Positions 18,538 to 50,744 of a DNA stretch of 64,000 bases are shown in pieces (within the stretch, counting starts at the first letter, position 1; each line of letters begins with the position of its first letter). A program made the translations under genes and the position numbers. The notes below the pieces were generated by a model. The model was not told where the DNA came from and did not search any database. It was given only the letters and a program-made list of their open reading frames with translations. The DNA is from Trueperaceae bacterium (lineage in GTDB: Bacteria; Deinococcota; Deinococci; Deinococcales; Trueperaceae), in the NCBI GenBank assembly GCA_965215565.1, contig CBDCDZ010000004.1:3200001-3264000 (forward strand). Reading direction: 5' to 3'.

Positions 18538-18697
18538 TAGTCAAGTCTCAGGCGGAGCCTAGCGGAACTTCATTTGGTTTGAAACGCAACCACTTTATTA
18601 AGCAGTGTTGCTAGGCAGCAAACTTGCGTAACTGGCAAGCGCATTCGAGAATGAAATCCCGCTAGTTCTTCGAACTGAGGCTTGCGCCATTCCGATC
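18538..18697 (+). mobile_element. MITE-like family copy E with three micro-inserts, right end degenerate
   Basis: Closely matches reverse complement of copy F (caagtctcaggcggagcctagc.gaacttcatttggtttga). Confidence 0.75.
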
Positions 18698-18701
18698 AGT
18701 A

Positions 18702-18818
18702 TAGCAGGTATCATCTGGTTTGAGACACGCCCACTAGATAAAACGACGTCTAGCGCGCACATTCGATGATAATACCTGCGCTCATCCGTCTCAGTCTCAG
18801 TATGTCTTGGAACTGCTA
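18702..18818 (+). mobile_element. MITE-like family copy C (insert-free core)
   Basis: tagcaggtatcatctgg...gataatacctgcgctcatccgtctcag...ggaactgcta; AGTA on both flanks. Confidence 0.85.
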
Positions 18819-18997
18819 AGTACTTATGTCAACTGCTGCATGGAAGGGAGAATTCTGCCTTCTGTATTCTCTTCTTATTCCGAGATTTGAACGGCGTTGC
18901 GGCGCGCTCAATTCGCCTGCGCCCTCTTGAATGACTCCATATGTCCACGCCCTCTAAAACGACATGGACATATTCGCCCCTATGGTTAGATTGATGG

Positions 18998-19837
18998 ATG
19001 GTAAAGCTCGGCGCACACGTTTCCGCTGCGGGCGGCGTCTCGAACGCGGTACGTAACGCGGCGGCGCTAGGTTGCGACGCGCTGCAGCTCTTCGTCAAGA
19101 ACGCGAGCCGCTGGGACGCCAAACCTTTGGACCCCGGCGAGGTCGCGCGCTTCAAGGAGATGCGCGCCGCGCAAGGCTCCTTACCTACCGTCGCGCACGC
19201 CTCATACCTCATCAACCTCGCTGCGACGAACGCCGAGACGCTGCGGCGGTCTCGAGCCGCCCTGAGCGGCGAGCTAGCACGCTGCCACGCGCTCGGCATC
19301 GGCGGGTTGGTCTTGCACCCCGGCGCGCACATGGGACGCGGCAAAGAGGCGGGGTTAGAAGCCGTCGTCACCTCTTTGAACGCGGTGCTGGGCGCGAACC
19401 CAGAGATTAAAACAAAGGTGCTGCTCGAGAACACCGCCGGGCAAGGCACTGTTTTGGGCAGCCGCTTGGAGCACCTCGCGTGGATCAGGGCGAACGCAGA
19501 GAGGGGCGAACGTCTAGGGGTTTGCTTCGACACCTGCCACGCCTTCGCCGCTGGCTACGACCTCAAAGGGAGATATGAAGAGGTGATGAATGAGTTCGGC
19601 GAAACCGTCGGCTGGGAGGCGCTAGGCTGCGTCCACCTCAACGACTCGCAGCACGCGCTCGGTTCGCGCAGAGACCGCCACGCGAACTTGGGCGCGGGTC
19701 ATATTGGCATGGAGGTGTTCGTCAAGCTCGTGAGCGACGTGCGTTTAGAGGGCGTGCCGCTGGTGCTCGAGACCCCTTTGGGCAAGGACAAGCTAGGTCA
19801 TAAGCGCGATTTGGCTAGACTCCGCGGTCTCTTATAG
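18998..19837 (+). CDS. nfo: Endonuclease IV
   Basis: GAHVS, HASYLIN, HPG, ENTAG, DTCHAF, HLNDS, DRH, ETP. Confidence 0.95.
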   Translation: MVKLGAHVSAAGGVSNAVRNAAALGCDALQLFVKNASRWDAKPLDPGEVARFKEMRAAQGSLPTVAHASYLINLAATNAETLRRSRAALSGELARCHALGIGGLVLHPGAHMGRGKEAGLEAVVTSLNAVLGANPEIKTKVLLENTAGQGTVLGSRLEHLAWIRANAERGERLGVCFDTCHAFAAGYDLKGRYEEVMNEFGETVGWEALGCVHLNDSQHALGSRRDRHANLGAGHIGMEVFVKLVSDVRLEGVPLVLETPLGKDKLGHKRDLARLRGLL

Positions 19838-19854
19838 GCGTAGGTGTAGAGGTC

Positions 19855-20256
19855 TTGAGAGTGAATAACGTGAGACTCGCTTGGGCCGTCAGTATAGGCG
19901 TCGCCACCCTGATCGGCACGCAGAGTATCTTTTGGGGGCTGCTAGCTGGGCTCGCGCTGTTCGTGCTCGTGCGCTGGTGGCAGCCTCGCGCCTTCGCCGT
20001 ACCCCCCGACGTGAGCGCGTCAGGACCGCGCCCCACCGAAAGAGCAACCTCCATAGAAGTCGTCTGCAAGACGGTCACCCCGGTGCGGCAGGAGTGGGTC
20101 TCGCTCAAGACGGGACGGCTCTACGACGTGCTGAGCGCCAACGGGCTCGCGGGCGCGCGTCCGGGCGACAGGGGTAGGGTGACGCTCACCGGGGCGACGT
20201 GGCGAATCGACCTGCCCGCACCCAACTCCAACCGCGAAGAGGTGGACGCGCCCTAG
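19855..20256 (+). CDS. Hypothetical membrane protein
   Basis: Two N-terminal hydrophobic segments; follows nfo. Confidence 0.55.
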   Translation: MRVNNVRLAWAVSIGVATLIGTQSIFWGLLAGLALFVLVRWWQPRAFAVPPDVSASGPRPTERATSIEVVCKTVTPVRQEWVSLKTGRLYDVLSANGLAGARPGDRGRVTLTGATWRIDLPAPNSNREEVDAP

Positions 20257-20281
20257 AGACCGTGCCGAACGAAAGCTTTAT

Positions 20282-20467
20282 TAGCAGTTCCACGACATAC
20301 TGGGACAGTTGAGCGCAGATCTCTGTCCGTAAGGACTAGCGTTACGGGCAGGCCGCCCTGCCGTTGCGGGATTTCATCTCTTAAAGTGCGTGCTAGTTAC
20401 GTAGTTTTCACGCAGTGAAACATCGTTTTACAAAGTGAGAGTGTCTCCGACCAGATGATACCTGCTA
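20282..20467 (-). mobile_element. MITE-like family copy B
   Basis: tagcagttcc...ccagatgatacctgcta; TAT on both flanks. Confidence 0.85.
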
Positions 20468-20641
20468 TATGTACCTCTCCACCACTTTTGGTATACCTGT
20501 TTTTGTGTACGACGTGTCTTCGCACTACGGTTTAGATTCGCCCGCCTACGGACTGCACCTAAAGGCCCTGTGAAGCGCCAAAGGTGCAGATGAGCGTGAG
20601 GTTTCTCACATTGGCTGCTACAGTGAGGACGGAGACTCATC

Positions 20642-21790
20642 ATGTATCCATCTTCCTCTGACACCCCTGCGCCTCACGGAAGGGACCTCGTGCTCTCTGA
20701 CGCTATAGCGTCGGACACGCAGACGCTCAACCGGTTGCGCTGGCGCGTGTCGCAGCTCGCTCTGGTCATCGCCTCGCTCGCGATGGTGCTGCAGTGGCTT
20801 CTCCTGACCCTCGAGCCCATCACGTACGGCGCTGTATCTCTGCTGATAGCGAGCCTTTGGTTTGCGCTTTTGGCTGTTTATCAGGGCGCTGTGCGCCGCG
20901 TCTCCGTGCTGGCGGAGCGCTTGGGACATCTGGGCTCGCTCGCGCTCTTTTTAGAGTTTTATACGCGCACAGTGGCGAACGTGTTGACGCTCGAGCGTCC
21001 GCCGGGCGAACTGGCGGAGATTTTCCCCTGGTTCGCGCCTATTTACATCACCGCGTTTATCGTCTATAGCGGCAGAACCGCGCTCGCGCTCTGCGGCGGT
21101 GTCGCCCTTTACACCTCGAGCGTCAGCGCCTTTTTCATCTCGCGTTCGGCGCTTAACGGCGCAGAGATGGTGGGGCTCGAGGCGTCTTTGGACCTCTTCG
21201 CTGCGAACGTCATCTCGCTGCTCATGCTCTTCATGCTGAGGCGCACCACCGAAGCCTGGACCAAAACGCGGGCCAGAGCCGAGGCGCTCGCGCAACTCGC
21301 CAACAGAGACGCGCTTACAGGGCTCTACAACCGGCGCTATTTGGACCAGACGGTCGCAGAGGAGGTGCGCCGCGCGCGGCGCTATGAGCACCCCCTCAGC
21401 GTCGCGCTCTGCGACATAGACAACTTTAAGCACGTCAACGACCGCTTCTCGCACGGCGTCGGCGACAGCGTGTTGGGAGAGGTAGCGCGTCTTTTAGAAA
21501 GCAGTGTTCGCCGCATTGACACCGTCGCCCGTTACGGCGGAGAGGAGTTCGTCCTCATCTTCCCTGAAACCGAGGCGGCGCAGGCGCACGTCGTCTGCGA
21601 AAAGGTTCGCCGCAAGATAGAGCGCCACCCCTGGTTCCGCTTCCATCCCGAGCTTAGCGTAACGGTGAGCATCGGCGTCGCGAGCGCGCGGCGTGGAGCG
21701 CGCTACCAGAACTCGAAACAGCTCCTGAGCGCCGCCGATCTAAAGCTCTATGAGGCGAAGCGGGCAGGGCGTAACCAGGTGCAGCGCTGA
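20642..21790 (+). CDS. Membrane-anchored diguanylate cyclase
   Basis: DALTGLYNR, DIDNFK.VND, RRID I-site, GGEEF. Confidence 0.92.
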   Translation: MYPSSSDTPAPHGRDLVLSDAIASDTQTLNRLRWRVSQLALVIASLAMVLQWLLLTLEPITYGAVSLLIASLWFALLAVYQGAVRRVSVLAERLGHLGSLALFLEFYTRTVANVLTLERPPGELAEIFPWFAPIYITAFIVYSGRTALALCGGVALYTSSVSAFFISRSALNGAEMVGLEASLDLFAANVISLLMLFMLRRTTEAWTKTRARAEALAQLANRDALTGLYNRRYLDQTVAEEVRRARRYEHPLSVALCDIDNFKHVNDRFSHGVGDSVLGEVARLLESSVRRIDTVARYGGEEFVLIFPETEAAQAHVVCEKVRRKIERHPWFRFHPELSVTVSIGVASARRGARYQNSKQLLSAADLKLYEAKRAGRNQVQR

Positions 21791-21976
21791 GCACGCTGCC
21801 GCGTCGTTGGCAAAACGACGTTTCGTCCGTCACGAATGGGACGCAAACGCGGTCCGCGCTCAAGCGCAGCCAAAAAGCTCGAACGTTCTCAGTGAAAGAG
21901 ATGCACTTTCGGAGTAGTGACAGCAAAGAGGCTCGAGGATATGTCCTCGAGCCTCTTCTTGAGCAAGCTATTCAGT

Positions 21977-22216
21977 CTATGGGTGAGCGTCGCTGGCAGC
22001 CACGCTCGGGTTAGCGCGCCGAGGATGCGCGAGCACGCTCGCTTTAGCGCGACTCCTTACGCCGTCACGCACGGCTTGCCAAGCGGCTTCGGCGATGGCT
22101 AACTCGCGCCGCGCCGCCTCTAAGCCGTACCCTCGGCGCTCCGCTTGCGCGACTCGAAAACGTGCGGCGATGAGGGTGTCGGCGGTTCTATCTAGTGAAG
22201 ATGTAAAGAAAAGCAT
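21977..22216 (-). CDS. Small hypothetical protein
   Basis: GGAGG before ATG 22216; helical Ala/Arg-rich sequence. Confidence 0.5.
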   Translation of the reverse strand: MLFFTSSLDRTADTLIAARFRVAQAERRGYGLEAARRELAIAEAAWQAVRDGVRSRAKASVLAHPRRANPSVAASDAHP

Positions 22217-22345
22217 CGCTGCCTCCAAATAGCGTGAGAGAAAGATGAGCAACTTCACTTATAGTAGCAGATGTTTAGGTCCGAGCCGCCTTAAATAAAA
22301 GAACGATGAAGTAGGACAACAACAGGTGTGAGCGGATGCGAACAA

Positions 22346-22544
22346 AGCAGTTCACAGAAATGTTGAATTGGAAGAGCGCAAGCCTCAGTTCGAAGAACCA
22401 TCTCGCTCTCAGGCGAAGCCTAGCGGGACGGCTTCGCCTGAGAGCGGGATTTCATTTAAGAATGTGCGTGTTCGCCGGTGTTCTCTAACGTGGGACTGGC
22501 TCAAACCAAATGAAGTTCAGCTAGGCTCCGCCTGAGACTTGCTA
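22346..22544 (-). mobile_element. MITE-like family copy F with nested micro-inserts
   Basis: agcagttc...cttgcta; internal hairpin 22400-22450. Confidence 0.8.
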
Positions 22545-22666
22545 TAGAAACAAAGGTAACAGGATGTGTAGTAGTGGCTCATGGCACTGCTATAAGGTTG
22601 GTGGTGTACCACGTTTTGTGTATGCAGCGGCGCAACGTCGCTTTCGCATAAAACGGGACACCTCTT

Positions 22667-24160
22667 TTAAGCTTCAGGCTTTAAGAGCGGGAAGAGGATC
22701 ACGTCGCGGATGCTCGGCACGTCCGCCAGAAGGATCGCTAAGCGGTCGAGCCCTAGACCCAAACCCCCTGTGGGCGGCATCCCGTACTCGAGCGCCGTTA
22801 AAAAGTCCTCGTCCAAGGGTTGCGCCTCGTCGTCGCCTGCGTCGCGGAGGGCTTGCTGCGCCTCGAAGCGTCTCCGCTGGTCTACAGGGTCATTGAGTTC
22901 CGAAAATGCGTTGCCGAGTTCCATGCCTACACAGACCGGCTCGAAGCGCTCAACTAAGCCAGGTCTCTTTCGGTGCTTCTTCGCCAAGGGGCTGATCGCG
23001 AGCGGGTGGTCCATCACGAACGTAGGCTGCTCCAGATGCGGCTCCACGTAGATGTCGTAGAGCTTGTTGTACACCTGACCGATGGGCTGGTCCGCCAACG
23101 CCTCCCCATTTGCCCCGCTATGCGGCGCGTGATGCTCGCGCACCCACGCGCGCAGCGCCTCTTCGTCCAAGGGATCAGCGTCCATCTTCGCCCTCGCTCT
23201 AAGCTCGCCCGTGTAGTCGACTCGGGCCCAGGGCGCGCTGAAGTCCAGTTCTTTCCCCTGATAGATGAGCGTGGTGGAGCCCGTCAACGCTTGCACGAGC
23301 GAGCTGTACATCGTCTCGACAAGCTCTAAGATATCCAGGTAATCCCTGCCCGCCCAGTAAAGTTCCAACATCGTGTATTCCGGGTTGTGCTTGGGGCTCA
23401 TCCCCTCGTTGCGGAAGTTGCGTCCGATTTCGTAGACCGCCTCGAAGCCGCCGACGATGAGGCGCTTGAGGTACAGCTCTAAGGAAATACGCAGGTGAAA
23501 GTCGTAGCCCAGCGTGTTGTGATGCGTGATGAAAGGGCGCGCCTCCGCGCCGCCGGGAACGCTCTGCAACACGGGCGTCTCAACCTCCAAAAACCCCAAC
23601 TCGTCCAAGTAGCGGCGGATGTAGCTGGTGGCGCGCGAGCGCAGCACGAACGCCCGCCTGACCTCCGGGTTGACCATGAGGTCCAAGTGGCGCTGACGGT
23701 AGCGCTGCTCTTTATCGGCTAAGCCGTGGTACTTGTCGGGCAGCGGACGTAGCGACTTGACGAGCGGGCGAAAGTCGGTAGCTTTGACAGTCAGCTCGCC
23801 TGTTTTGGTCACGAAGAGGGGACCTGTGACCTCGAGCCAGTCGCCCAAGTCGATCTTTTTAAGCGCGTTGTAGCGCTCTAGGGCGTCCTTCTGAAAGTAC
23901 GCCTGAATCTGTCCCGAAGCGTCTTGTAGGGTCACGAACGACGCCTTGCCCATCATCCGCACCGTCATCGCCCGCCCTGCAACGGTCACGGTCTCTTCAA
24001 AAGCGTCGCCCGGCCCCGCGGTTCCATGCGCCGCTTGCAAATCCGCCGCGCGGTGCGTCGCGCGAAAGCTGTAAGGGTACGGCTCGAAGCCGCGCTCCTC
24101 CAAGGAGTCCAAATTTTTAAGGCGCTGCTCGCGCTGTTCGTTGAGTGATTTTTGAGTCAT
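22667..24160 (-). CDS. lysS: Lysyl-tRNA synthetase (class II)
   Basis: RYRQR.LDL, GGAEARPF.T, FRNEG, YGMPPTGG.G.G.DR. Confidence 0.97.
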   Translation of the reverse strand: MTQKSLNEQREQRLKNLDSLEERGFEPYPYSFRATHRAADLQAAHGTAGPGDAFEETVTVAGRAMTVRMMGKASFVTLQDASGQIQAYFQKDALERYNALKKIDLGDWLEVTGPLFVTKTGELTVKATDFRPLVKSLRPLPDKYHGLADKEQRYRQRHLDLMVNPEVRRAFVLRSRATSYIRRYLDELGFLEVETPVLQSVPGGAEARPFITHHNTLGYDFHLRISLELYLKRLIVGGFEAVYEIGRNFRNEGMSPKHNPEYTMLELYWAGRDYLDILELVETMYSSLVQALTGSTTLIYQGKELDFSAPWARVDYTGELRARAKMDADPLDEEALRAWVREHHAPHSGANGEALADQPIGQVYNKLYDIYVEPHLEQPTFVMDHPLAISPLAKKHRKRPGLVERFEPVCVGMELGNAFSELNDPVDQRRRFEAQQALRDAGDDEAQPLDEDFLTALEYGMPPTGGLGLGLDRLAILLADVPSIRDVILFPLLKPEA

Positions 24161-24300
24161 AAAGCGTCCTAAACTAAAGTGAGCGTAAGGAGGTCAAAAC
24201 CTTGTCTAGTTTAGATTACCTCTTGCTAGGTGGTGTGACCGTATAGTCAAGTTGCTTATACTGGGAGACCTCGCTGAAAAAGTCACAGGAGAAGGCAAAT

Positions 24301-24324
24301 TTAGGGCGATTCATAAATCGCCCC
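24301..24324. repeat. REP-like palindrome
   Basis: ttagggcgattcataaatcgcccc, related to 15909-15936. Confidence 0.6.
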
Positions 24325-24559
24325 GCCCGTTTCGTTTATGTCGCGCATACCCTCGCTAAGAAAAATGATCGTGACTTTTCTAAGGTGTGGGGGCAATATC
24401 ATTCAGGTATCAGTAGAATCACGTAATTACTTTCGCGCCGGCTATTGAATTCTGGCGGCTCAGCCTCTCTGACGCTGAGCCAACATCTTCGCTAGCATAC
24501 CGCCTTATAATTGACCTCGCGAAGTTTTAAGTATCCCCCTCAAAAGGAGACACGCTATC

Positions 24560-25036
24560 ATGAGCAAAAAACCCATCTACTTAACCCCGCAAGGTCATCA
24601 GAAGATCAAGGACGAACTCAAGTACCTAGTCGAGGTGCGCCGCCAGCAGATTTCTGAGAACATGGGGCAAGCGATTGCCGACGGCGACCTCCGTGAGAGC
24701 GCCGCCTACGACGAAGCGCGTATGGAGCAGAGCGCGAACGAAGCCCGCATCGCCGACCTAGAGGAGATCATCCACCGCGCCGTCGTCGTCGAGCACCAAG
24801 AGGGCGACGTCGCCGTGGCGCGACTCGGCGCGAGCCTGACGCTCGAGGACACCTCGGGCGAGCAGAACACCTTTCACTTAGTTGGCACGCACGAGGCGGA
24901 CATCTTGGACAACCGCATCTCGGACGAGTCGCCTCTAGGCTCGAAGCTGATGGGCAAGCAAGCGGGCGACAAGGTCAAGGTGCCTTTAGGCAACCGCACG
25001 ACGGAATATACCGTCGTGGACGTACGCTTCGAGTAA
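24560..25036 (+). CDS. greA: Transcription elongation factor GreA
   Basis: GDLRESAAYDEA, ISDESPLG. Confidence 0.93.
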   Translation: MSKKPIYLTPQGHQKIKDELKYLVEVRRQQISENMGQAIADGDLRESAAYDEARMEQSANEARIADLEEIIHRAVVVEHQEGDVAVARLGASLTLEDTSGEQNTFHLVGTHEADILDNRISDESPLGSKLMGKQAGDKVKVPLGNRTTEYTVVDVRFE

Positions 25037-25381
25037 GCACACGTCCAACCCCTTTGGACCAGTTCCCTTTAGAGTAGAAGTGCAGAAGTCAGCCGCCGCC
25101 CAGAAGTCTAGGATCTCTGAGCGGCGTTCTCTTGCCCCGAGTACCCTGTGTACACTTACCCCGTGTACGCCTATAGCGTGCTCAGCCGAAACGTCTGAGT
25201 CTACAGCAAACTCAAAATTAGACTTTATCCGAGGGTGTGGTATAACCTTGTGTAGGTCACTCGCCGCTTTGGTGTTACACACCTTCGCCTGCTCCTGATT
25301 AGCCCCTTTTCGTAAAACTGGTGAAGCGTGACGGCAACCTTTTTGCACAAACCGTGCTCTGGGTTTAAGTAACGGGACTTG

Positions 25382-25492
25382 TAGGGCTTTCTGATTTCAT
25401 TGAGCTTGTATCACGCAGGTATCATTACCGAACGTGCATACTCGATGACGCTCCATCTAGTGGGATTGGTTCAAACTAGATGATACCTACTA
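25382..25492 (-). mobile_element. MITE-like family copy L
   Basis: tgagcttgtatcacgcaggtatcat...ctagatgatacctacta; matches end of copy I. Confidence 0.7.
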
Positions 25493-25611
25493 ACCCGCGC
25501 CGTTCATCAAACCTAGGTTTTCCCTCAACCTGCGTGCTGTACATGAGCTGTACACGTAGCGCGAAGTGGTGAGTTTACTCAACGTCCAGGGGGACGAAAT
25601 AAGGGGTAGAA

Positions 25612-27243: not shown

Positions 27244-27250
27244 GTATTGC

Positions 27251-27360
27251 AGCAGTTCCACGACACACTGAGACAGTTGAACGCAGGTCTCATCTCTTAA
27301 AGTGCGTGCTAGACACCGCTTTCCAAAATGAGATTGTTTCAAACCAGATGATATTTGCTA
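27251..27360 (-). mobile_element. MITE-like family copy D (insert-free core)
   Basis: agcagttccacgacacactgagacagttga...ccagatgatatttgcta; close to copy B. Confidence 0.82.
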
Positions 27361-27409
27361 TCGGTACTGGTAGACAGAGATGGAAAAGCCACGGAAAGAG
27401 ACAAATGCA

Positions 27410-27436
27410 GTAAGGGTGGGTTTCAAACCCACCCCT
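27410..27436. repeat. REP-like palindrome
   Basis: gtaagggtgggtttcaaacccacccct. Confidence 0.7.
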
Positions 27437-27463
27437 CTCTCTATCTCTTTGCTTCCTACTTCT

Positions 27464-28021: not shown

Positions 28022-28032
28022 AGGGAAGTATA

Positions 28033-28108
28033 GCAAGAGAGCAATGAGTAGCGAGTTCCGAGCAATGAGTGAAAACCAAAGTCTTTCCACTTTTAACTCA
28101 TTGCTCGA
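28033..28108. repeat. GAGCAAT heptamer inverted array
   Basis: gagcaatgagt x2 ... actcattgctc. Confidence 0.7.
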
Positions 28109-29585: not shown

Positions 29586-29603
29586 TAACTATAGCAGAAA
29601 TAT

Positions 29604-29619
29604 CTGTGCAAACAGACAA
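29604..29619. promoter_or_regulatory. Possible PucR-family operator
   Basis: ctgtgcaaacagacaa, a TGT-N8-ACA dyad between regulator and hpaC. Confidence 0.35.
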
Positions 29620-29685
29620 TTGTGCCAAACGTCAGCTTCGTCTATTGTCAGAAAAAGCTAAAAAGAACTATCATCGTTGTGTGAA

Positions 29686-29820
29686 TAGCAGGTAGCATCT
29701 GGTCATTAGCGCTCTCACTTGAGAAAACATTGTTTAGCGCTCACTTCAGGAGATGAAATTCCGCTATTGCTACGCAATGAGATCTGCGTGATACAAACTC
29801 AGTGATTTTGAAAAGCGCTG
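29686..29820 (+). mobile_element. MITE-like family copy I
   Basis: tagcaggtagcatctgg...gatctgcgtgatacaaactcagtgattttgaaaagcgctg. Confidence 0.75.
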
Positions 29821-29835
29821 AATGTAGGAGGCACA

Positions 29836-30351: not shown

Positions 30352-30377
30352 AAAAGTCAAAAAAGTTAGGAGAGGTT

Positions 30378-39346: not shown

Positions 39347-39351
39347 GTCAT

Positions 39352-39380: not shown

Positions 39381-39404
39381 GTTGGGAATCAGAAGAGGTC
39401 TACT

Positions 39405-43104: not shown

Positions 43105-43158
43105 TTTAGCGCTGTTCGCCTCACATTCGCTCAAGCGCCCTTCGCTTATCATCTAAAG

Positions 43159-43323
43159 ATGTCCGCTGAAATAATCTTATGGCTTGTAGGTTGCGGCGTG
43201 TTCCTGCTCGTACTCCTTTTCGTCGTGCGCTCCTACGTGCTCCAACATCATGATGAAGATGACGACGAGGCAGAGACTCGTGACGAATCCGAGGCTGAGC
43301 GCAAGGTTGACGCGCCGTCCTGA
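43159..43323 (+). CDS. 54-aa single-TM small protein with acidic tail
   Basis: MSAEIILWLVGCGVFLLVLLFVVRSYVLQHHDEDDDEAETRDESEAERKVDAPS; TATCAT 6 nt before ATG. Confidence 0.6.
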   Translation: MSAEIILWLVGCGVFLLVLLFVVRSYVLQHHDEDDDEAETRDESEAERKVDAPS

Positions 43324-43339
43324 CGCCCTAACGTCGGCG

Positions 43340-44263
43340 CTACCTCACGAGCAGCTTCGCTACTGCCAAATCCTCTAGCGCTACGCCGACTGACTTGAAG
43401 AGCGTCGTGACCTCTTCACTGCTTCGCTTGGTCTGCTCCGAGACGAGGCTGGCGAGGTCTCCTCTTACCGCTTCAAAGGACCAACCTTCCTGCGCCGCTT
43501 GGATGAGGTCGCCCGCTTCGGCTTTTGCGGCCTCTACGTCATCCACAAACACCTCTGACCTCTTAAACGTCTCACTATCCGACTCGCGCATTTCGGGCGT
43601 GAATGCGCCGACTAAATCGATATGCTGAGCACTACCCCTCAGGTATTCGGCGCGGACGAGGGGTTGGTTTGAGGTCGTTGCCGCGCTTATCGTGTCTGCC
43701 TGACTCAGCACCTCTTCTAAGTTAAACGCCACACTGACCTCTACGTCTGCACTCTCTTTTCGCACCTCTTTCACCGTCTGCGCCGCTCTGCTTTCGCCTC
43801 GTCCCCACACGAAAATCCGTTCGTACTCCCTCACGTGTGCGTGCGCCCGTGCCATGAACGGCGCGAGCGCGCCCGTGCCGATGACGAGGAGCGTCTTCGC
43901 GTTTTCGGGTGCGAGGTATTTCGCCGCTAGCGCCGACGCGCCCGCCGTGCGGATGCGGGTCAAGGCGGTTGCGGCGGTAGAGAGTACGGGCGTTCCGGTG
44001 GGATTCATCAGGGTATAGTGCGCTTGGACGGTGGGGAGGTTTCGGTCCGCGTTCGTCGGGATCACGCCGACTTGCTTTACACCGAACCAGCCCTCGGCGT
44101 CGGCGCAGGGCATGGTGAGATACGTACCCGCTGCGGGCGCGGGGATGACCACGCGCTCGGGGGAGAAGTAGCGAGCGGGGTTTTGAAAAGCGGTCTCCAG
44201 GCTGGTCAAAACCGCGTCCCAAGAGAGCGCGGCCTGCACGTCGGCGTCGTTGAGAAAGTTCAT
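43340..44263 (-). CDS. Ornithine cyclodeaminase / mu-crystallin family protein
   Basis: LTRIRTAG.SALA, GTGA, FKSVG.ALED. Confidence 0.9.
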   Translation of the reverse strand: MNFLNDADVQAALSWDAVLTSLETAFQNPARYFSPERVVIPAPAAGTYLTMPCADAEGWFGVKQVGVIPTNADRNLPTVQAHYTLMNPTGTPVLSTAATALTRIRTAGASALAAKYLAPENAKTLLVIGTGALAPFMARAHAHVREYERIFVWGRGESRAAQTVKEVRKESADVEVSVAFNLEEVLSQADTISAATTSNQPLVRAEYLRGSAQHIDLVGAFTPEMRESDSETFKRSEVFVDDVEAAKAEAGDLIQAAQEGWSFEAVRGDLASLVSEQTKRSSEEVTTLFKSVGVALEDLAVAKLLVR

Positions 44264-44556
44264 GGCAACAGCTTAACGGATGGAGAGGATAGAAGCGTCC
44301 TCGAGTGCTTAGCTTTCGGGTTGGCGAGTTGAGAAAACCTGAAAGGCTCGTTAGGTTCCGCTGATATTTCGTACTTTTTGAACCTGAGATGTACCATACT
44401 GAGTGAAGAAATAAGAAGCTGGAAGGAGGGGGCAAAGAAGAGGGATAGCAAACTGCAGACTTCGTATCGTGTAAGCATTTTTGGCGTGCCTCTCGAAATC
44501 AGATGTCAACACAGCCTAGCTGAGACGCTGCAGTATTCCAAAAGGTAAAGTGTCCC

Positions 44557-45243
44557 ATGTTTCCAAAACCTGAGAACCTAGATGAAGCGCGGCGTCTGCA
44601 GGGCGAGCTTGCGGCGCAGGTGAGGTTGGAGGGGCGTCTCGGGGGCGTCCGCACCTTGGCTGCTCTGGACGCCTCGATGATACAAAACGGACCTATCGTT
44701 GCAGCGGCGGTTCTGTGGGATGTGGCGGCGCAAGAGGTCAGAGAGATAGGGCTCGCGGCGGTGGACCAGGAAGAGGTTTTTCCCTATGTGTCCGGCTTCC
44801 TCTCCTTCCGCGAAGCGCCCGCTTATTTGGGCGCGTTAGCCGAACTCTCTACGCCGCCCGACCTCTTACTCGTGGACGGTCAAGGAATCGCTCATCCGAG
44901 GGGTCTAGGAATCGCGTCGCACTTAGGTGTGCATCTGGACACGCCGAGCATCGGGGTGGCGAAAAGTCGGCTTTACGGAGAAGCAGTAGGGGAGTTGGAC
45001 AAAGAGGTTGGGCGCGCGGTGCCACTCGAGGCCAAACAAGAGCAAATCGGCTGGGTGTACCGCTCGAGGACGGGCGTCAAACCTCTCTACCTCTCGCCGG
45101 GCCATAAGGTTGAAATGCTCGAGGTCTTGAATTTCGTCCGCAGCTTGCCGGGAAAAACCAAGCTGCCCGAGCCGCTGAGACAGGCGCATAACTGGGCGGG
45201 CAAGGCGCGCAAGGAAGGGTTAAGAGGTCGGCGCGTCCCGTAA
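44557..45243 (+). CDS. nfi: Endonuclease V
   Basis: FPYVSGFLSFRE, DGQGIAHPR, GVAKS, SPGH, PEP. Confidence 0.93.
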   Translation: MFPKPENLDEARRLQGELAAQVRLEGRLGGVRTLAALDASMIQNGPIVAAAVLWDVAAQEVREIGLAAVDQEEVFPYVSGFLSFREAPAYLGALAELSTPPDLLLVDGQGIAHPRGLGIASHLGVHLDTPSIGVAKSRLYGEAVGELDKEVGRAVPLEAKQEQIGWVYRSRTGVKPLYLSPGHKVEMLEVLNFVRSLPGKTKLPEPLRQAHNWAGKARKEGLRGRRVP

Positions 45244-45288
45244 GAGTTGCCTCACGCGCCTACAGCGCCGCGCGGTAAACTCGCCTTT

Positions 45289-45348
45289 ATGCGCGGTCTT
45301 TTCACCCTTATTTTGTTCGTCGCTGTAGTCGGCGTGTATCCTCTTTAA
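45289..45348 (+). CDS. 19-aa hydrophobic mini-ORF
   Basis: MRGLFTLILFVAVVGVYPL; TAAACT 7 nt upstream of ATG. Confidence 0.35.
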   Translation: MRGLFTLILFVAVVGVYPL

Positions 45349-45392
45349 GTCGTCCGCCCCTTCGCCCGGACCACATCCGGCGTCCCGAAGAC

Positions 45393-45872
45393 CTACAACC
45401 CCTCTTCCCCCTGCGCACTGACCAAAGGACGCTGCGCCGTAGAGGTCACGAAGCCGTGGAGCGGCGCAAGGGAGTCCAACCTGAGCCAGTCCCCCGCCGC
45501 CACGTCACCGGGTAGGCCCGCGAAAACGCTCACGATTAGAGGAATGCCCGCATCTATGACGACGGTGCGCTGCTGCCGCAAGAGCACCGGGCCCTGCGCG
45601 TGAACCCGGCTGAGCCCCGTGACCTCCAGACGCTTGCGCCTCTCGGCGGCTTTCTCGACGGTTTCGGTCATCGCGTTGACGATGATCTGTGCGCTGCCCG
45701 GCACGACGCCGTACGGACCCGTGCGCTCCAACACATGAAAGATTTTCCCTGCCGCGCTGCATTCCAAGAGCGGATTACCCTCCGTGCGCGAAAAGAGCTG
45801 CACGCTCGCGGCGTAGGGTCTCCACTGAGAGATGAAATTTTCGATCGAGTCTTCGAAGGCAGTCTCGGGCAT
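45393..45872 (-). CDS. Hypothetical protein
   Basis: 159-aa ORF with TAGACT 7 nt upstream of ATG. Confidence 0.65.
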   Translation of the reverse strand: MPETAFEDSIENFISQWRPYAASVQLFSRTEGNPLLECSAAGKIFHVLERTGPYGVVPGSAQIIVNAMTETVEKAAERRKRLEVTGLSRVHAQGPVLLRQQRTVVIDAGIPLIVSVFAGLPGDVAAGDWLRLDSLAPLHGFVTSTAQRPLVSAQGEEGL

Positions 45873-45970
45873 GGAGGACAGTCTAACCTACCGGTTACGC
45901 GGTACGAGGGCGCGTAGCGGCGGTTGGCGAAAGAGAATACAGGACCTCTTGCGAAGTGGTAAGCTAAAGT

Positions 45971-46003
45971 ATGTCGTTTCAGACGCCCCCGCCGCCCTCA
46001 TAG
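45971..46003 (+). CDS. Putative leaderless polyproline leader peptide MSFQTPPPPS
   Basis: TAAGCT(45960)-aaagt-ATG; codons ccc ccg ccg ccc; followed by terminator. Confidence 0.5.
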   Translation: MSFQTPPPPS

Positions 46004-46008
46004 CCCAC

Positions 46009-46042
46009 CCCGCCGTGATGCACACTGGCGGGCGTTTTTTTT
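46009..46042 (+). terminator. Intrinsic terminator
   Basis: cccgccgtg atgca cactggcggg cg TTTTTTTT. Confidence 0.75.
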
Positions 46043-46094
46043 GCGCGATTGGACGGGGCCCTGCAGGGTGGTAGGGTGGCTCTGAGGCTCAGTG

Positions 46095-46187
46095 TAGCGG
46101 CAAGCATACTGAGAGACGCAGATATTATCGTAAACATGTGCCACACGGCGTGACGTGAGCGCGTTTCTGACCGGATGATACCTGCTA
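46095..46187 (-). mobile_element. MITE-like family copy J
   Basis: catactgagagacgcagatattatc...ccggatgatacctgcta. Confidence 0.7.
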
Positions 46188-46199
46188 TCAGGAGGACCC

Positions 46200-46898
46200 A
46201 TGCTCGACAAACTCAGCCAAGTACAACTGCGTGACTTAGACCTCGATACCTTACAAGAGGAGAAGGGGCGCACCCCCAAAGACCTCGTCGCGGCGAGGGA
46301 GCGCAAAGAGGCGTTAGAGGCGCGCCTAGCGCAGACCGAGGCGCGTTTCAGTGAGGTGCGCCAGGAGGTAAACCGCAACGAGCTGGAGATTAAAACCTTG
46401 AACGAGCGCCGTGAGAGCGCCGCGAACGCCGCCATCGCAGCGGGCCCGACGCGCGAAGCGGCGCAGTACCAGAATCAGGAGTTGCAGTTCGCGACGCGCG
46501 TGCAGGAGCTAGAGGACGACACGCTGCCGCTCATGGAGCGCATGGAGGGGTTAGAGGGAGAAGTCGCCGAGCTTAAAGCCGCGCTCGCCGAGCTAAAACC
46601 TCAACTGAGCGAACTGGCCCAAACGGAAGAGGCGCGTGTCGCAGGGGTCGAGGAGAAAATCAGCACTTTGACGGACGAGCGCAACGCCGCCGCCGAAGGC
46701 ATCGACGCCCCGCTCCTCAAGCAGTACGAACAGGTGCGCCGCGCCAAGCGCGGCGTCGGCGTCGTGCCGATCGTGGACAACCAGCGCTGCGGCGGGTGCA
46801 GTATGCGCCTGCCCATCCACGTGATCCAAAAGACTAAAACGGGTAAAAAGATCACCCGCTGCCCGAGCTGCGGGCGGATTTTGTGGGCGAAGGACTAA
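46200..46898 (+). CDS. Coiled-coil plus C4 zinc-ribbon protein (DUF164 family)
   Basis: LQ..DL.LD-like start, long coiled coil, CGGC...CPSCGRIL. Confidence 0.88.
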   Translation: MLDKLSQVQLRDLDLDTLQEEKGRTPKDLVAARERKEALEARLAQTEARFSEVRQEVNRNELEIKTLNERRESAANAAIAAGPTREAAQYQNQELQFATRVQELEDDTLPLMERMEGLEGEVAELKAALAELKPQLSELAQTEEARVAGVEEKISTLTDERNAAAEGIDAPLLKQYEQVRRAKRGVGVVPIVDNQRCGGCSMRLPIHVIQKTKTGKKITRCPSCGRILWAKD

Positions 46899-46900
46899 AA

Positions 46901-46972
46901 GCAGCAATGAGTTGAAAATAGCGAGCAATGAGCATTGAAGTTCCACTTTTTGCTCGTTGCTCATTGCTGTTT
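46901..46972. repeat. GAGCAAT heptamer inverted array
   Basis: gcagcaatgag..gcgagcaatgagca opposed to tgctcgttgctcattgctg. Confidence 0.75.
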
Positions 46973-46982
46973 TCCTCCTTGG

Positions 46983-47180
46983 AGCAGTTCCATTTATCAT
47001 TGCTGCACTTCTCCGCAAATCTCAGCCTGTCAAGGTTAGCGGAACTTCATCCCTGAAAGTGCGTGCTAGGCGATGTTCTCTTTAGTAAGAGCGTTGCTTC
47101 GCTTACGAAGTTTCCCTCCGGGAATGGCTTCGCCCAAGCTGACCAGATGATTGAGCGAAGCTATACGAAGTAACCTGCTA
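46983..47180 (-). mobile_element. MITE-like family copy H with micro-inserts
   Basis: agcagttcc...aaagtgcgtgctag...ccagatgat[insert]acctgcta. Confidence 0.78.
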
Positions 47181-47240
47181 TTACATTCTTCACGCCGGGT
47201 GTCCGCGCTATACTGGCGGACACATGAAAGAGGTGAAGTG

Positions 47241-48089
47241 GTGAGTACAGTTCCAAGTATCACGTTAAATAGCGGCAAGACGATTCCGCAGCTCGGCTTC
47301 GGCACGTATCAGATCAAACCCGAGAACGCGGTGGAGGCGGTCAGCAAGGCGCTCGAGGTGGGCTACCGCCATATCGACACCGCGCAGATGTACGGCAACG
47401 AGAAAGAGGTCGGCGAGGCGATTCACGCTTTTAGCGCGGACCGGAGCGAGGTTTTCGTCACGAGCAAGCTCAACAACGGCTTTCACGAACCGGACGACGC
47501 GCGCCGGTCATTCGACGAGACGCTCTCCAAGCTCGGCGTTGAGTACGTAGACCTCTTTCTCATCCACTGGCCCCTGCCGACACGCTACGGCGGCGACTAC
47601 GTCTCGACGTGGCAGACCTTAGAGGAGTTCTACCGTGACGGACGCGCGCGCTCGGTCGGCGTGTCGAACTTTCAGGTCGCGCACCTAGAGCGGCTCGCCG
47701 CCGAGAGCGAGACCGTGCCCGCCGTGAACCAGATCGAGGCGCACCCTTACTTTCTCAACGGTGAGGTGCGCGCTTACGGTCAAGAACACGACATCGAGAC
47801 CGAGGCGTGGTCGCCCATCGCACAAGGGGAAGTCCTAGACGACGCCACGATCACGAGCATCGCAGAAGAGGTCGGTAAGACGCCCGCGCAGGTGGTGTTG
47901 CGCTGGCACATCCAACGCGGCGACATTGTGTTTCCCAAGTCGGTAACGCCCTCGCGCATCGAGGAGAACTTCGCGATCTTCGACTTCGAGTTGGATTCCG
48001 GCGCTATGGATAAGATCAGCGCCTTGGGCAAGGGCGAGGCGGGACGCACCGGACCGAACCCGGACGAGTTCGACTACATCCCGGACTAA
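47241..48089 (+). CDS. Aldo/keto reductase (2,5-DKG reductase-like)
   Basis: GYRHIDTAQMYGNE, LIHWP, GVSNF, PKSV; GTG after GAGGTG. Confidence 0.92.
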   Translation: MSTVPSITLNSGKTIPQLGFGTYQIKPENAVEAVSKALEVGYRHIDTAQMYGNEKEVGEAIHAFSADRSEVFVTSKLNNGFHEPDDARRSFDETLSKLGVEYVDLFLIHWPLPTRYGGDYVSTWQTLEEFYRDGRARSVGVSNFQVAHLERLAAESETVPAVNQIEAHPYFLNGEVRAYGQEHDIETEAWSPIAQGEVLDDATITSIAEEVGKTPAQVVLRWHIQRGDIVFPKSVTPSRIEENFAIFDFELDSGAMDKISALGKGEAGRTGPNPDEFDYIPD

Positions 48090-48113
48090 GAGGGATCAGG
48101 TTAAGAGGAGAGC

Positions 48114-48566
48114 TTACCGCTTCTGCCGAAAGTTCCGAATCTTCGCCGTGATGATGAAGTCGCCCTCAAAGAGGTAAAACTCCTGCAACTCGAGACCCTC
48201 CACCTGCTGGTTCATGAGCGACTGAATATCTAGGAGCAGCTTGGGCTCACGCTCGCCGCGCTGAATGCGAATGCCCTCGGGTAAGGGGATGCGCTCGGTG
48301 ATGAGGTTGAGGAGGCGGTGCAGCGGGATAATGTAAACGTTGGTGGCGAGGTCAAAGGTGGCGACGCCCGCCGCAAAAGAGCGAAAGGTCAGCTCGAGCC
48401 TGATTTTCGGCGCGATTCGGTGTAGCGCCTGGGGCAGCGAGGTCTTGGGGTCGATCGTGACATGGACGGTGTTACCTTGCGCGATGATGCGCTCGATTTG
48501 CGGCGGGAGCGGCTTGTCACTCGTGGCGAGGTCTATCGCTTCGGGAAAGGGCAAGACGAGCTGCAT
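48114..48566 (-). CDS. Hypothetical protein, third gene of recF operon
   Basis: ORF directly abuts DUF721 stop. Confidence 0.65.
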   Translation of the reverse strand: MQLVLPFPEAIDLATSDKPLPPQIERIIAQGNTVHVTIDPKTSLPQALHRIAPKIRLELTFRSFAAGVATFDLATNVYIIPLHRLLNLITERIPLPEGIRIQRGEREPKLLLDIQSLMNQQVEGLELQEFYLFEGDFIITAKIRNFRQKR

Positions 48567-49409
48567 CTAGTGCCACCGCCCCAACGCTCTGGCGACTCTC
48601 GCGTCGAGCCGGTCAAAGTCAGCCTCTGAAATCTCGCTCAAGGGTTTCTCCAAGAGGTGCGCCAAGTAGCAGCGGGCGGCGCTCTCTAGGTGCGGCCTAT
48701 AGGTGGGGTCCGCGAGCACGTGCGGGAGGAGTTCTTGCAGCTTCTCTTTGAGGTACGCTCTCGCGAGATAGGCCGCCACGTGCCGCTCGTCGTCGCTCAG
48801 CATGGGCGTCGCTTGGGCGGGGTCAAGCGCGAGTTGATGGCTCGCACGTTGGATGAGGCGTGAGCCGCTGTAGCGCGTGCACACCGTGCAGAGTGCGCCA
48901 CTTCCAATTAGCGTTTCGCAGACCGTACAAGGGGTCCAACCTTCGGACAAGCGCCTCGAGCGGTACGCGAGCATCGCTTTGGCGGCTTGCATAGTGGGTC
49001 TGGAGAGGTCGTCGGGCAAATCCAACTGACCGAGTTGACGCGCGAGCGTCGCCAAGGCCTTAGGGTCAACGGGCGCTTCGGGGGGCTTCTCTTTAGGCGC
49101 ATCCGGCGGAGCCTGCCGCCCCACCCGGAAGCGCACCTCTTTGATGTCCTTCACGCCGAACTTCGCCCGGTAGACGTTCAAGAATTTCTGCCGCTGAAAG
49201 CTCAGGTGCATCGCCGTCTCCGAGTCGGGCACCTCGACGAAGAGCGTGCCGTCCTGGACGCTCCGCGCGGTGGTGAACCTGGCGACGTTTGCGCCGACGA
49301 CTTGGGGCCATAAGAGCACCGCTTCGGCGCGTCTGACGCCGCGCCGCATCCCGCCGCGCTTAAAGACTTCGGCGAGCACGTCGGCGACGTTGCTCGGTTT
49401 ATTCGTCAT
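48567..49409 (-). CDS. DUF721 (DciA-like) protein with zinc ribbon
   Basis: WPQVVG..VA.FT; CTVC twice; overlaps recF stop. Confidence 0.8.
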   Translation of the reverse strand: MTNKPSNVADVLAEVFKRGGMRRGVRRAEAVLLWPQVVGANVARFTTARSVQDGTLFVEVPDSETAMHLSFQRQKFLNVYRAKFGVKDIKEVRFRVGRQAPPDAPKEKPPEAPVDPKALATLARQLGQLDLPDDLSRPTMQAAKAMLAYRSRRLSEGWTPCTVCETLIGSGALCTVCTRYSGSRLIQRASHQLALDPAQATPMLSDDERHVAAYLARAYLKEKLQELLPHVLADPTYRPHLESAARCYLAHLLEKPLSEISEADFDRLDARVARALGRWH

Positions 49410-50449
49410 GATCTATCCACATTGACCTGACCCCCTGATACAAAAAAATGTTTCGCTGCGTGCGGCGGCGCTTCGGTGCCACTTACCAGTGCCTGCGGCG
49501 TATTCGCGGCGAGCGAGAGGAGAAACTCGCGTCGCCCCGCGTCGAGTTCGGCGGTGAAGTCGTCCAGGAGGAGCACGGGCGCTTCGCGGTGTTTTTCGTT
49601 CAAGAGCCTGTACTCGGCGACGCGCAGGGCCAACGCGGCGGTGCGTGCTTCGCCGCGAGAGCCGTACGCCTGCACGCTGTAGCCGTTTAGCGTCAACACG
49701 AGATCATCGCGGTGGGGTCCCACGACGGTGACGCCGCGAGCGCGCTCTTCGTCTTCACTCGCGAGGAGCGCCGTTTCTAAAGCCGGTCCCTCTGCGCTCG
49801 CTAAACTCACGCCGAGTTCTTTATCCTGCCCCGATATCTCCGCGTAGCTCGCTCTGGCGATGTCGCAAATGCGCCCCACCGCCCGCTCCCTGAGCGCCAT
49901 GATTTCACCGCCCAGTTCCACAAAGCGCTCCGTCCACACGCTCAGCGTCGGGTCAACCCTCTTCAAGCTCGCGTTGCGCTGTTCCACCACCCGATTATAC
50001 TCGCGGCTGAGGAGCGCGTAGCGGTACGAGAGGCGACTCAGCAGCGAGTCGAGGTAGTGCCGCCGCGCCGAGGGCGAGCCGTGGACCATGTCGGCGTCCT
50101 CAGGCGTGACGAGCACCGCCGCCGCGACTTTGGCAAGCTCAAAGGTCCGCACGTTCTGCCCGTCTAAGCGGATCACCTTGCGCCCCGGCGCGAGCCCGAT
50201 CTGCGTCGTGCTGACGCCATCATCCCGCTCGATTTGGGCACTCACGAAGCCCTCCTCCTCACCGATGCGCACCGTCTCGGCGATTTTACCGCCCGGCAGT
50301 TCGCCCGTGCAGCCCAGATACACCGCCTCTAACACGTTCGACTTGCCCGCCGCGTTGCGCCCGACGATGGCGTTGACACCGGGGGAGAACTCGAGCCTCG
50401 GCGTCCGCAAATTGCGGTAGTTGAGTTGCGACAGCGACAGCAGGAGCAC
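49406..50449 (-). CDS. recF: DNA replication/repair protein RecF
   Basis: NYRN, GRNAAGKSN, GPHRDD, SRGE, LLDDFTAELD. Confidence 0.95.
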   Translation of the reverse strand: MLLLSLSQLNYRNLRTPRLEFSPGVNAIVGRNAAGKSNVLEAVYLGCTGELPGGKIAETVRIGEEEGFVSAQIERDDGVSTTQIGLAPGRKVIRLDGQNVRTFELAKVAAAVLVTPEDADMVHGSPSARRHYLDSLLSRLSYRYALLSREYNRVVEQRNASLKRVDPTLSVWTERFVELGGEIMALRERAVGRICDIARASYAEISGQDKELGVSLASAEGPALETALLASEDEERARGVTVVGPHRDDLVLTLNGYSVQAYGSRGEARTAALALRVAEYRLLNEKHREAPVLLLDDFTAELDAGRREFLLSLAANTPQALVSGTEAPPHAAKHFFVSGGQVNVDRS

Positions 50450-50544
50450 GGCGTAGTGTAACCGAGAAGTAGGGAGGAGGAAAAGTAAGAGACGTGCAGG
50501 CTTCGCACCTCTTGTTCCTTAATTTCTACTTCTTACTCTACCTT

Positions 50545-50744
50545 TAGCACTTTCAAAACATACTGAGACGGATGAGTACAGGTTTCGGCTCGCAGACCGA
50601 TTCCGCTAGGCTTTGCCTGAGAGCGGGATTTCATCACCAAATGTATGTGCCAATTACGAAGTTTTCGCAAAGCGAAACAGTATCTCTTACAGTGAAAGTA
50701 TTTCTAACCAGACGATTGCGTGAAGCTTCCGAAGGAACCTGCTA
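50545..50744 (-). mobile_element. MITE-like family copy G with micro-inserts
   Basis: tagcactttc..catactgagacggatgag...acctgcta; CTT on both flanks. Confidence 0.8.

Follow-up and report, generated by a model that had tools for sequence, protein, structure and literature searches.

How mobile elements of only 21–27 nt move has been an open question since 2008, when small dispersed repeats (SDRs) were described in Nostocaceae, reportedly by Elhai et al., with secondary structure said to be kept by compensatory changes. The accessible parts of the literature list SDR1–8, including the 21-nt SDR5 (PMC4390886, PMC5861425, PMC13756078), and one of these papers, from 2026, continues to describe SDR5 as lacking a known function (PMC13756078). 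The same question is raised by our window, a stretch of 64,000 nt from a Trueperaceae genome. An original prediction, made from the letters of this stretch, had proposed that a family of nested hairpin units (family 1) consists of site-specific micro-parasites of a MITE. The genome offers a handle on the question, with about 200 alignable host copies and their tree, filled and empty alleles, and orthologous pairs. It also provides two signatures that separate mechanisms, namely an exact junction whose other side is sometimes overwritten, and hairpin types tied to their flanks.

Family 1 Is a Dispersed, Structured Insert

All nine units listed in the original prediction were recovered at the positions and on the strands given for them. 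A genome-wide scan of the source genome (G000) with the pattern YTCW-N7-13-TARCGGRAYYTCA gave 108 exact matches. The reversed control gave 0 matches in the same genome and five 6-mer block shuffles gave 0, 0, 1, 0, and 0, so the matches are not due to chance. None of the 108 copies lies inside a called gene, and the units, 21–26 nt in length, are non-coding, dispersed, and multi-copy. Rfam returned 0 matches across positions 14000–51000 of the window. Scanning the genome_contigs collection returned two stretches. One is a Trueperaceae record (L056) with the same MITE and unit, which we did not treat as a further independent genome; the other (L057) is a chance match. The metagenome_contigs collection returned a single chance match, inside a gene-like stretch (L102).

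The unit consists of a single bulged hairpin and a 7-nt tail. Among 106 units collected by their flanks only, with pairing not required, 103 were fully paired down to a 3–4 nt loop. Covariation proved real: across 19 distinct 11-nt hairpins, 87% of stem cells were paired compared with 52% after arm shuffling, and 0 of 5000 shuffles equaled this value, a significance that the shuffle overstates because the 19 hairpins are related. Each stem position carries 2–4 Watson–Crick pair types. The predicted GNA loops held for 15 distinct hairpins, but GNYA (9), GNRA (4), and other loops also occur. The subtype TTCA-CAG..CTG-TAACGG (22 copies) has pyrimidine loops on the family-1 strand and a purine loop on the opposite strand. 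The first letter of the unit covaries with the tail (C-G 95, T-A 26, T-G 5, C-A 0; n = 126). Covariation gave no support for an outer stem joining the left flank to the tail (2.55 versus 2.57 shuffled). Circular (dumbbell) folds of family 1 were likewise unsupported, their computed energies being mostly positive under an energy model that underrates GNA hairpins. Apart from TCA on both sides, the unit shows neither terminal inverted repeats nor a target duplication.

The Unit Replaces One Base of Its Host

The host is a 111-bp MITE with terminal inverted repeats and a 3-bp target duplication (53 of 73 empty 111-bp copies). Of 210 paired-end candidates, a score filter left 208 and the removal of overlaps left 205; a search of G000 for an autonomous partner sharing the MITE ends found none. 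Empty sites read GCAGRT-A-TCATC, with the A present in 126 of 136 empty full-length copies, and no filled site retaining this A was found. The unit does sit in the MITE motif as predicted, but it replaces the target A and is not a simple insertion. Spacing was exact on both sides in 87 of 89 MITE-context units. The internal site holds 127 units and the terminal site 20. Copies occur in further contexts as well, namely the MITE terminal motif, the interior of other units, and one further repeat. When left halves of nine-nt hairpins were collected with no flank condition (n = 72), about 52 lay directly after an inverted tail, 13 after GCARRT, and 2 after a sibling insert, the remaining ones resembling chance matches.

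The window contains both states of the site (unit coordinates are full extents including the last tail letter). One MITE copy bears a unit with a GGC-GGA-GCC hairpin in its terminal motif (18547–18569, +) and a GTTC-GAA-GAAC unit in its internal motif (18655–18679, −). An empty copy adjoining it (18702–18818, −) has kept the A at its internal site. Further units lie in a terminal motif (22514–22536, −) and, with TTGC-GTA-GCAA and GCCT-GTCA-AGGT hairpins, at 29757–29781 (−) and 47021–47046 (+), respectively. The units at 20321–20373 (+) and 14663–14715 (−) are each split by a 27-nt insert. The first belongs to the MITE copy at 20282–20467 (+), which also carries a 23-nt two-hairpin insert (20397–20419). 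Its 27-nt hairpin insert (20342–20368, +), which splits the family-1 tail, is of a separate family that is found outside family 1 too. The second belongs to the MITE copy at 14571–14754 (−), with a two-hairpin insert at a second site.

Filling Is Almost Random with Respect to Host Ancestry

Family-1 units fill 69 of the 205 full-length MITE copies, about a third. Presence was mapped on a MITE tree built without columns 38–44 and with copies having filled or damaged ends left out. It was not monophyletic, requiring 53 changes compared with 58.1 ± 3.0 after label shuffling (70 of 1000 shuffles gave 53 or fewer). Host column 38, also outside the tree, was used as a control and required 24 changes compared with 66 shuffled. 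Filling is almost random with respect to host-copy ancestry, and the fill state disagrees in 38 of 77 MITE pairs differing by at most two bases. In congeners, 126 relative sites were surveyed, of which 64 had no synteny, 44 had no G000 site, and 18 were usable, with a MITE site in the syntenic G000 interval. These 18 included three orthologous filled/empty pairs, in both directions. The tree counts cannot separate gain from loss, and the A of empty sites points to gain. Non-monophyly on the MITE tree and real covariation support the predicted site-specific, repeatedly gained micro-inserts.

Ordinary gene conversion between MITE copies, with inheritance through MITE transposition and loss and with no insert-specific process, would be another account of this distribution. 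Close relatives share types above random, with the type differing in 13 of 43 filled pairs, and a copy that holds one insert tends to hold another as well (odds ratio for family 1 and site C 5.7, and 6.6 within clusters). Possible loss scars also fit this account, with 4 of the 136 empty copies carrying C in place of the A, versus a single C in four other conserved A columns; the 111-bp copy at 27250–27360 (+), with C instead of A at its empty site (27283–27294), may carry one such scar. However, host substitutions keep a strong tree signal and the insert almost none, flanks only a few bases away remain unconverted, and the contrast of column 38 with insert presence largely refutes this account. 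Where the host and other carriers differ, filled copies follow the host at columns 38 (10:2), 46 (22:2), and 48 (27:1), which argues against long-tract conversion; column 37 behaves in the opposite way (0:5). Compensatory change also maintains the stems, precise loss without a template could not restore the A, and inverted nests would require another step. We regard gene conversion of this kind as quite improbable.

Hairpin Types Are Bound to Context

Two hairpin types account for 18 of 20 terminal-site units but for 1 of 127 internal-site units. Similarly, 27 of 28 nested guests are of the GGC type or its compensatory variants, compared with 9 of 114 units in MITE context. Different ages of the hairpin types could explain part of this segregation. 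The mobile-parasite reading of the original prediction gains from the repeated gain of units, whereas the binding of hairpin types to flanking context disfavors a freely excised parasite.

The junctions were asymmetric, with the 5′ junction exact and the 3′ side sometimes overwriting 1–4 host bases. Of 48 nest events that were peeled apart, 13 (counted by eye) have a parent arm that, next to the 3′ end of the guest, departs from its paired form toward letters of other nests; these arms are not independent, as eight share one parent type and may represent one to three events, and the earlier state of the parents is a reconstruction. The two-level nest at 50584–50630 (+), whose parent holds an inverted guest (50600–50621, −), has its parent arm altered beside the guest 3′ end. 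The window also contains a three-level nest at 22384–22451 (+), with an inverted guest (22399–22442, −) and an inner guest (22408–22429, +) inside the parent. GTCC-type units occur on GAT flanks 35 times and on GGT flanks 14 times, indicating that primer-end homology is not strict, and the host base two places before the junction was kept in three nests. Given this flank mix and the three kept bases, an enzyme-made junction fits equally well.

Such a junction could be the work of a dedicated single-strand enzyme (HUH-type or other) with IS200/IS605- or RAYT-like chemistry, one that would release the unit as a separate fragment or mini-circle and insert it at T^A, where the A is lost. The exactness of 5′ junctions even with flank mismatches, the conserved bulged hairpin, the insertion of several sibling families just 5′ of an A, and two Y1-domain genes in G000 all fit this possibility. 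Were the unit free, its type should be independent of context, whereas the hairpin types are segregated; we consider such an enzyme unlikely.

The enzyme searches bear on the same possibility. Non-autonomous derivatives of IS200/IS605 have a cognate TnpA in the genome and a lagging-strand bias. The Y1 domains found in G000 were only RAYT-like, the sole match for TnpB was short and lay on a small contig, and the units showed no replication-strand bias (61:61) in what is a weak test because of weak GC skew and uneven arms. A Y2 (IS91) search gave no match anywhere, its controls included, and is therefore uninformative. The mutS-mutL RAYT comes with a GTAG palindrome of its own that differs from family 1, and inspection of its locus by eye revealed none of the family-1 units; the other Y1 domain lies inside a restriction-modification gene. 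The RAYT protein query matched 14 of 128 genomes, with none in G002 or the g4 genomes and with G082, G041, and G094 outside the matching set, and genera without family-1 units do match it. RAYT was rejected as the mover on both palindrome and distribution, leaving the suggested co-occurrence of a matching HUH enzyme unsupported.

Copy-In Homing Is a Plausible Route

Taken together, the exact 5′ junction, the 3′ overwriting, and the context-bound types speak for a copy-in step guided by short flanks that match, and against an excised unit moving on its own. We therefore give about even credence to a reading in which family 1, a non-coding hairpin insert of 21–26 nt that replaces one A in the 111-bp MITE, spreads by homing, with a single strand of a filled copy as the template from which an empty copy, sharing short flanks with it, acquires the unit. 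The donor strand would pair with the target on either side of the site, and the unit would loop out as a bulged hairpin. A putative structure-specific nuclease, or a break arising by chance, would open the target at T^A, and extension of the target 3′ end across the unit would give the exact 5′ junction that we observed. The displaced A, together with up to about 4 mismatched bases, would form a 5′ flap that is trimmed away, and sealing would follow where the match between donor and target resumes. Such trimming would account for the loss of the A and the occasional 3′ overwriting. The GNA/GNNA mini-hairpins may have been selected for stabilizing or marking the single-stranded DNA intermediate. 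Nests likely began when the tail of a unit encountered its complementary sequence on the opposite strand, later spreading as a context of their own. The MITE supplies hundreds of targets, and its transposition probably carries filled copies along. Counting against this reading, the searches yielded neither a responsible enzyme nor an intermediate, the TTCA subtype has its purine loop on the opposite strand, and an outer stem lacks covariation.

The original prediction had allowed either a single-stranded DNA or an RNA template, and the loops favor the former, with GNA and GNYA forms (GNYA 9 versus GNRA 4 distinct hairpins). In the accessible text of one study, d(GCGNAGC) hairpins melt at 70–76 °C and resist exonuclease, and r(GCGAAAGC) melts at 39 °C (PMC13037366). 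RNA-templated homing, in which a reverse transcriptase, or a polymerase able to act as one, writes RNA transcribed from filled copies into nicked targets, would also yield context-bound types and 3′-side overwriting, and G001 has four group II intron-like reverse transcriptase loci. It nevertheless appears a slim prospect. G000 lacks a reverse transcriptase though it is 99.99% complete and richest in units, and the suggested co-occurrence failed in that RVT_1 had 0 matches in G000 and G002 and was present in G001. In addition, triloops and GNYA loops suit DNA, and the units show no preferred orientation relative to flanking genes (33:18 versus 62:49, p = 0.31, on rough gene calls).

Transport as cargo of the MITE-targeting IS110 recombinase was also weighed. 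Seven near-identical IS110 copies, with a TC core, occupy the very same terminal MITE motif, and homologues of 47–92% identity occur in G001, G002, G055, and G082. An IS110 transposase is described, in the accessible part of one report, as mobilizing a separate small module (PMC12288879). However, TC-core exchange would retain the target A, which the units never do, and the units are by eye unlike the IS110 donor sequence, with variable right arms. IS110 is found only at the terminal site, whereas units are mostly internal (127 versus 20). DNA stiffness also makes a double-stranded circle of 22 bp implausible. Neither a donor sequence fitting the bridge RNA nor core exchange with unchanged flanks was found for the units, and IS110 transport is very improbable.

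Relation to Known Elements

The label of an undescribed system was too strong, as family 1 is of the same kind as the SDR elements of cyanobacteria and one sibling family is built like the Nostoc HIP1 inserts. Like SDR elements, family 1 falls within 21–27 nt, is dispersed, multi-copy, and non-coding, keeps its stems by compensatory changes, and occurs as both filled and empty alleles of one fixed, short target site. Elements of the SDR5 type are expected to have two GNA hairpins, as in the Nostoc HIP1 inserts, and to insert precisely into HIP1 with the target unchanged, whereas family 1 has one bulged hairpin with a 7-nt tail, targets GCAGRT-A-TCATC with replacement of the A, nests in inverted orientation, and has its host in Deinococcota. 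Family 1 is a variant of SDR-type micro-elements, set apart on the accessible descriptions from SDR5, the SDR family with which it was compared.

Intron homing, recombineering, and prime-editing chemistry are homing or oligo-directed insertion systems. Family 1 would resemble them in flank-guided copy-in to an empty allele, with a few flanking bases converted on one side. It differs in having no encoded nuclease or reverse transcriptase and converted flanks of only a few bases, making this an analogy of working, not of family. REP/REPIN-RAYT systems, as described in the accessible text of PMC3116915, share short extragenic palindromic DNA, nesting, and proposed single-strand mobility. In contrast to these, family 1 has no GTAG tag, is not clustered beside a RAYT, and is confined to short motifs inside other repeats, and the RAYT distribution does not follow the units. 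The likeness to IS110 elements that target repeats, such as ISPpu9 in REPs (PMC12288879, accessible part), is that the G000 IS110 targets the same terminal MITE motif; the units differ in that they are non-coding, carry nothing of the IS110 donor sequence, and alter one base of the target.

In the literature covered, which includes few subscription journals, no description of such elements in Deinococcota was found; our results place SDR-type elements, the SDR5 layout included, in this phylum. If copy-in holds, bacteria can write short structured DNA into sites defined by few bases without a transposase or reverse transcriptase. A broader extension, possible though doubtful, is a general homing pathway that moves structured single-stranded DNA of 17–27 nt between sites sharing few bases. 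A host structure-specific nuclease-polymerase would read the looped-out GNA hairpin junction, open the opposite strand, and write the unit in, which would explain SDR-type elements across phyla. This pathway would be a natural counterpart of prime editing free of reverse transcriptase, and this MITE would be a system for finding the enzyme.

The pattern GCG-N21-ATCGC has 14 matches on the Nostoc plasmid NC_010631. Four or five of them contain two hairpins in a 3+7+2+9 layout, and these inserts are taken to be SDR5 on the accessible descriptions. A sibling family in our MITE has the same layout, with 82 matches. The MITE copy bearing the 47021–47046 unit carries a sibling 21-nt insert with two GNA hairpins and SDR5-like anatomy, at GAT^ACC (47152–47172, +). 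At least seven insert families are co-resident in this MITE, with IS110 competing for one site, and several of the sibling families share with family 1 the insertion point just 5′ of an A.

Results and Discussion

Family 1 is real and has moved repeatedly. The nine units (hairpin inserts) listed in the original prediction are all present in the window, which sits on the 4.39-Mb main contig (C4) of genome G000 (completeness 99.99%). The genome-wide scan it had proposed was run with the exact pattern YTCW-N7-13-TARCGGRAYYTCA, with the reversed pattern as control. This returned 108 matches in G000, 23 in G001, and 30 in G002, with 0 in 38 other genomes and 0–1 for the control. None of the 108 lies inside a called gene of G000. 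A looser pattern across 128 family genomes added one match each in G041, G082, G094, and G049; the first three lie inside a related MITE, and the G049 match was rejected as chance. The Trueperaceae record L056 carries the same MITE and unit. Among 106 G000 units collected by flanks alone, 103 pair fully to a 3–4 nt loop.

The host MITE is 111 bp long with TAGCAG ends and shows a 3-bp target duplication in 53/73 empty copies. It gave ~525 chained hits in G000 and occurs in 7/121 family genomes spanning three genera; G000 yielded no autonomous partner. The motif GCARRT-A-TCATY occurs twice per copy, internally and at the right end. Elsewhere on C4, the terminal 23–27 MITE bases are arrayed in tandem (179865–179946 and 1994360–1994432). 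Additional ~100-bp MITE families with TAGCA-like ends also occur (1768380, 2715359, 4280236, and others), some containing a 21-nt two-hairpin insert.

Each unit consists of YTCW, a hairpin of 7–12 nt, TARCGGRAY, and one more letter. Its opening Y pairs with the tail R (C-G 95, T-A 26, T-G 5, C-A 0; n = 126), which implies a bulged C beneath the hairpin. An A stands at 126/136 empty MITE sites, and no filled site retaining it on either side of the unit was found; thus one base is replaced by the unit. Four empty sites, including window 27283, have C instead and may be slippage scars.

The internal site is filled in 69/205 full-length copies. On a FastTree MITE tree built without columns 38–44, unit presence required 53 changes, near the 58.1 ± 3.0 obtained with shuffled labels; column 38, likewise excluded and used as control, required 24 against 66. 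The inserts are therefore not monophyletic, as the prediction of mobility had implied. MITE pairs differing by ≤2 bases were discordant in 38/77 cases, close to the random 45%, and the GTCC-type unit is spread over 17 host clusters. Neighboring host substitutions do not travel with the unit (own host versus other carriers 10:2 at column 38, 22:2 at column 46, 27:1 at column 48), except at column 37 (0:5). Separate insert families tend to share MITE copies, also when compared inside host clusters (odds ratio 6.6). Most MITE copies of congeners lie at different places from those of G000. Among 126 sites checked in relatives, a G000 site was present in the syntenic interval for 18, and three of those 18 form filled/empty orthologous pairs: L047 filled with G000 C4:2483447 empty, G002:C4:199534 empty with G000 C4:547236 filled, and L103 filled with G000 C4:1318898 empty and degenerate. 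The MITE tree by itself cannot tell gain from loss; we infer gain because loss without a template could not restore the A. Plain conversion combined with inheritance and loss is a quite unlikely alternative.

The 5′ junction is exact. Spacing was exact at 87/89 units in MITE context, and among 72 nine-nt-hairpin units gathered with no flank condition, ~52 lie directly behind an inverted tail, 13 behind GCARRT, and 2 behind a sibling insert. On the 3′ side, the parent arm was changed over 1–4 bases in 13/48 peeled nest events (one unit inside another); the changes lean toward letters seen in other nests, the cases being non-independent and the parent state inferred. Which hairpin type is present depends on context: two types account for 18/20 terminal but 1/127 internal units, and one group supplies 27/28 nested guests versus 9/114 units in MITE context. 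Since the types differ mainly in their paired stems, self-guidance to separate targets would be difficult, and donor flanks most likely participate in targeting. Units showed no replication-direction bias (61:61, with weak GC skew) or flanking-gene-direction bias (p = 0.31). The weak skew of C4 defines very unequal arms (minimum 3.15 Mb, maximum 0.29 Mb); on the small contig C3, a gene set is apparently present twice.

The reading we favor, at about even confidence, is that units home by being copied from a template into sites with short matching flanks. The target would be opened at T^A, extension would cross the looped-out hairpin of the unit, and the A with adjacent mismatches would be trimmed off as a 5′ flap; each enzymatic step is a proposal. 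The observations behind it are that units were gained or exchanged repeatedly, join exactly at the 5′ side, displace the A, and sometimes overwrite a few 3′ bases, and that hairpin types keep to their contexts and stems are conserved. A general homing pathway operating without reverse transcriptase is a tentative possibility.

The GNA loops of the original prediction occur in 15 distinct hairpins, alongside GNYA in 9 and GNRA in 4. By comparison with PMC13037366, this loop set fits DNA mini-hairpins better than RNA tetraloops. Contrary to the DNA-loop reading, the TTCA subtype (22 copies) has its purine loop on the opposite strand. Spread through an RNA template appears very unlikely; no reverse transcriptase was found in G000 or G002, and reverse transcriptase loci resembling those of group II introns occur in G001.

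Excision of the unit followed by joining through a single-strand enzyme is also unlikely. G000 has two Y1 domains of the HUH type. One RAYT-like Y1 domain, accompanied by short repeats, lies in frame within a type IIG-like restriction-modification protein (L001, C4:3784734–3788051, 1322 aa). A stand-alone RAYT flanked by mutS and mutL occurs in G000 and G001 (L029 and L028); it was rejected as unit mover, having a GTAG palindrome of its own inside the coding sequence and a distribution that does not match. REP-like palindromes tagged GTAG/GTAA at window 15846–15871, 27410–27435, and 63764–63789 are possibly its partners.

Seven near-identical IS110 copies (including L002–L007) each occupy a MITE terminal motif at the TC core (C4:638695, 681608, 1226928, 1291004, 2530155, 3105957, and 4135758). 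By eye, the left non-coding end has two looped arms with segments matching target and donor, resembling a bridge RNA, and in a G055 homologue altered segments match its altered targets. IS110 as the unit mover is nevertheless highly improbable and was rejected, since units moved by it would leave the A in place and the internal site is not among its targets.

The host MITE houses at least seven additional insert kinds of 17–27 nt. One, 21 nt long with two GNA hairpins in a 3+7+2+9 layout, enters precisely 5′ of an A; the layout gave 82 matches, is found in 6/364 phylum genomes, and also occurs at HIP1 sites of Nostoc plasmid NC_010631. PMC4390886 reports SDR5 insertion between the third and fourth HIP1 bases. 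Set against SDR5, the one SDR family compared, family 1 is a variant of SDR-type micro-elements: its behavior is SDR-like, and it differs in layout and in altering a target that SDR5 leaves unchanged. This places SDR-type micro-elements in Deinococcota, for which our literature search found no description of such elements.

Two-hairpin siblings lie at window 47152–47172, 47095–47136, 50717–50737, and 20397–20419; one family is SDR5-like at 21 nt, and another targets GN^A loops of other inserts. Three further hairpin-plus-tail families (one hairpin, 21–27 nt) lie at or near the MITE terminal motif, for example in G000 chains, and two appear to replace an A. A 27-nt hairpin splits family-1 tails (window 20342–20368) and occurs in other contexts (C4:144873, 1334466, 4037153, and 4264297), including the end of a two-copy IS.
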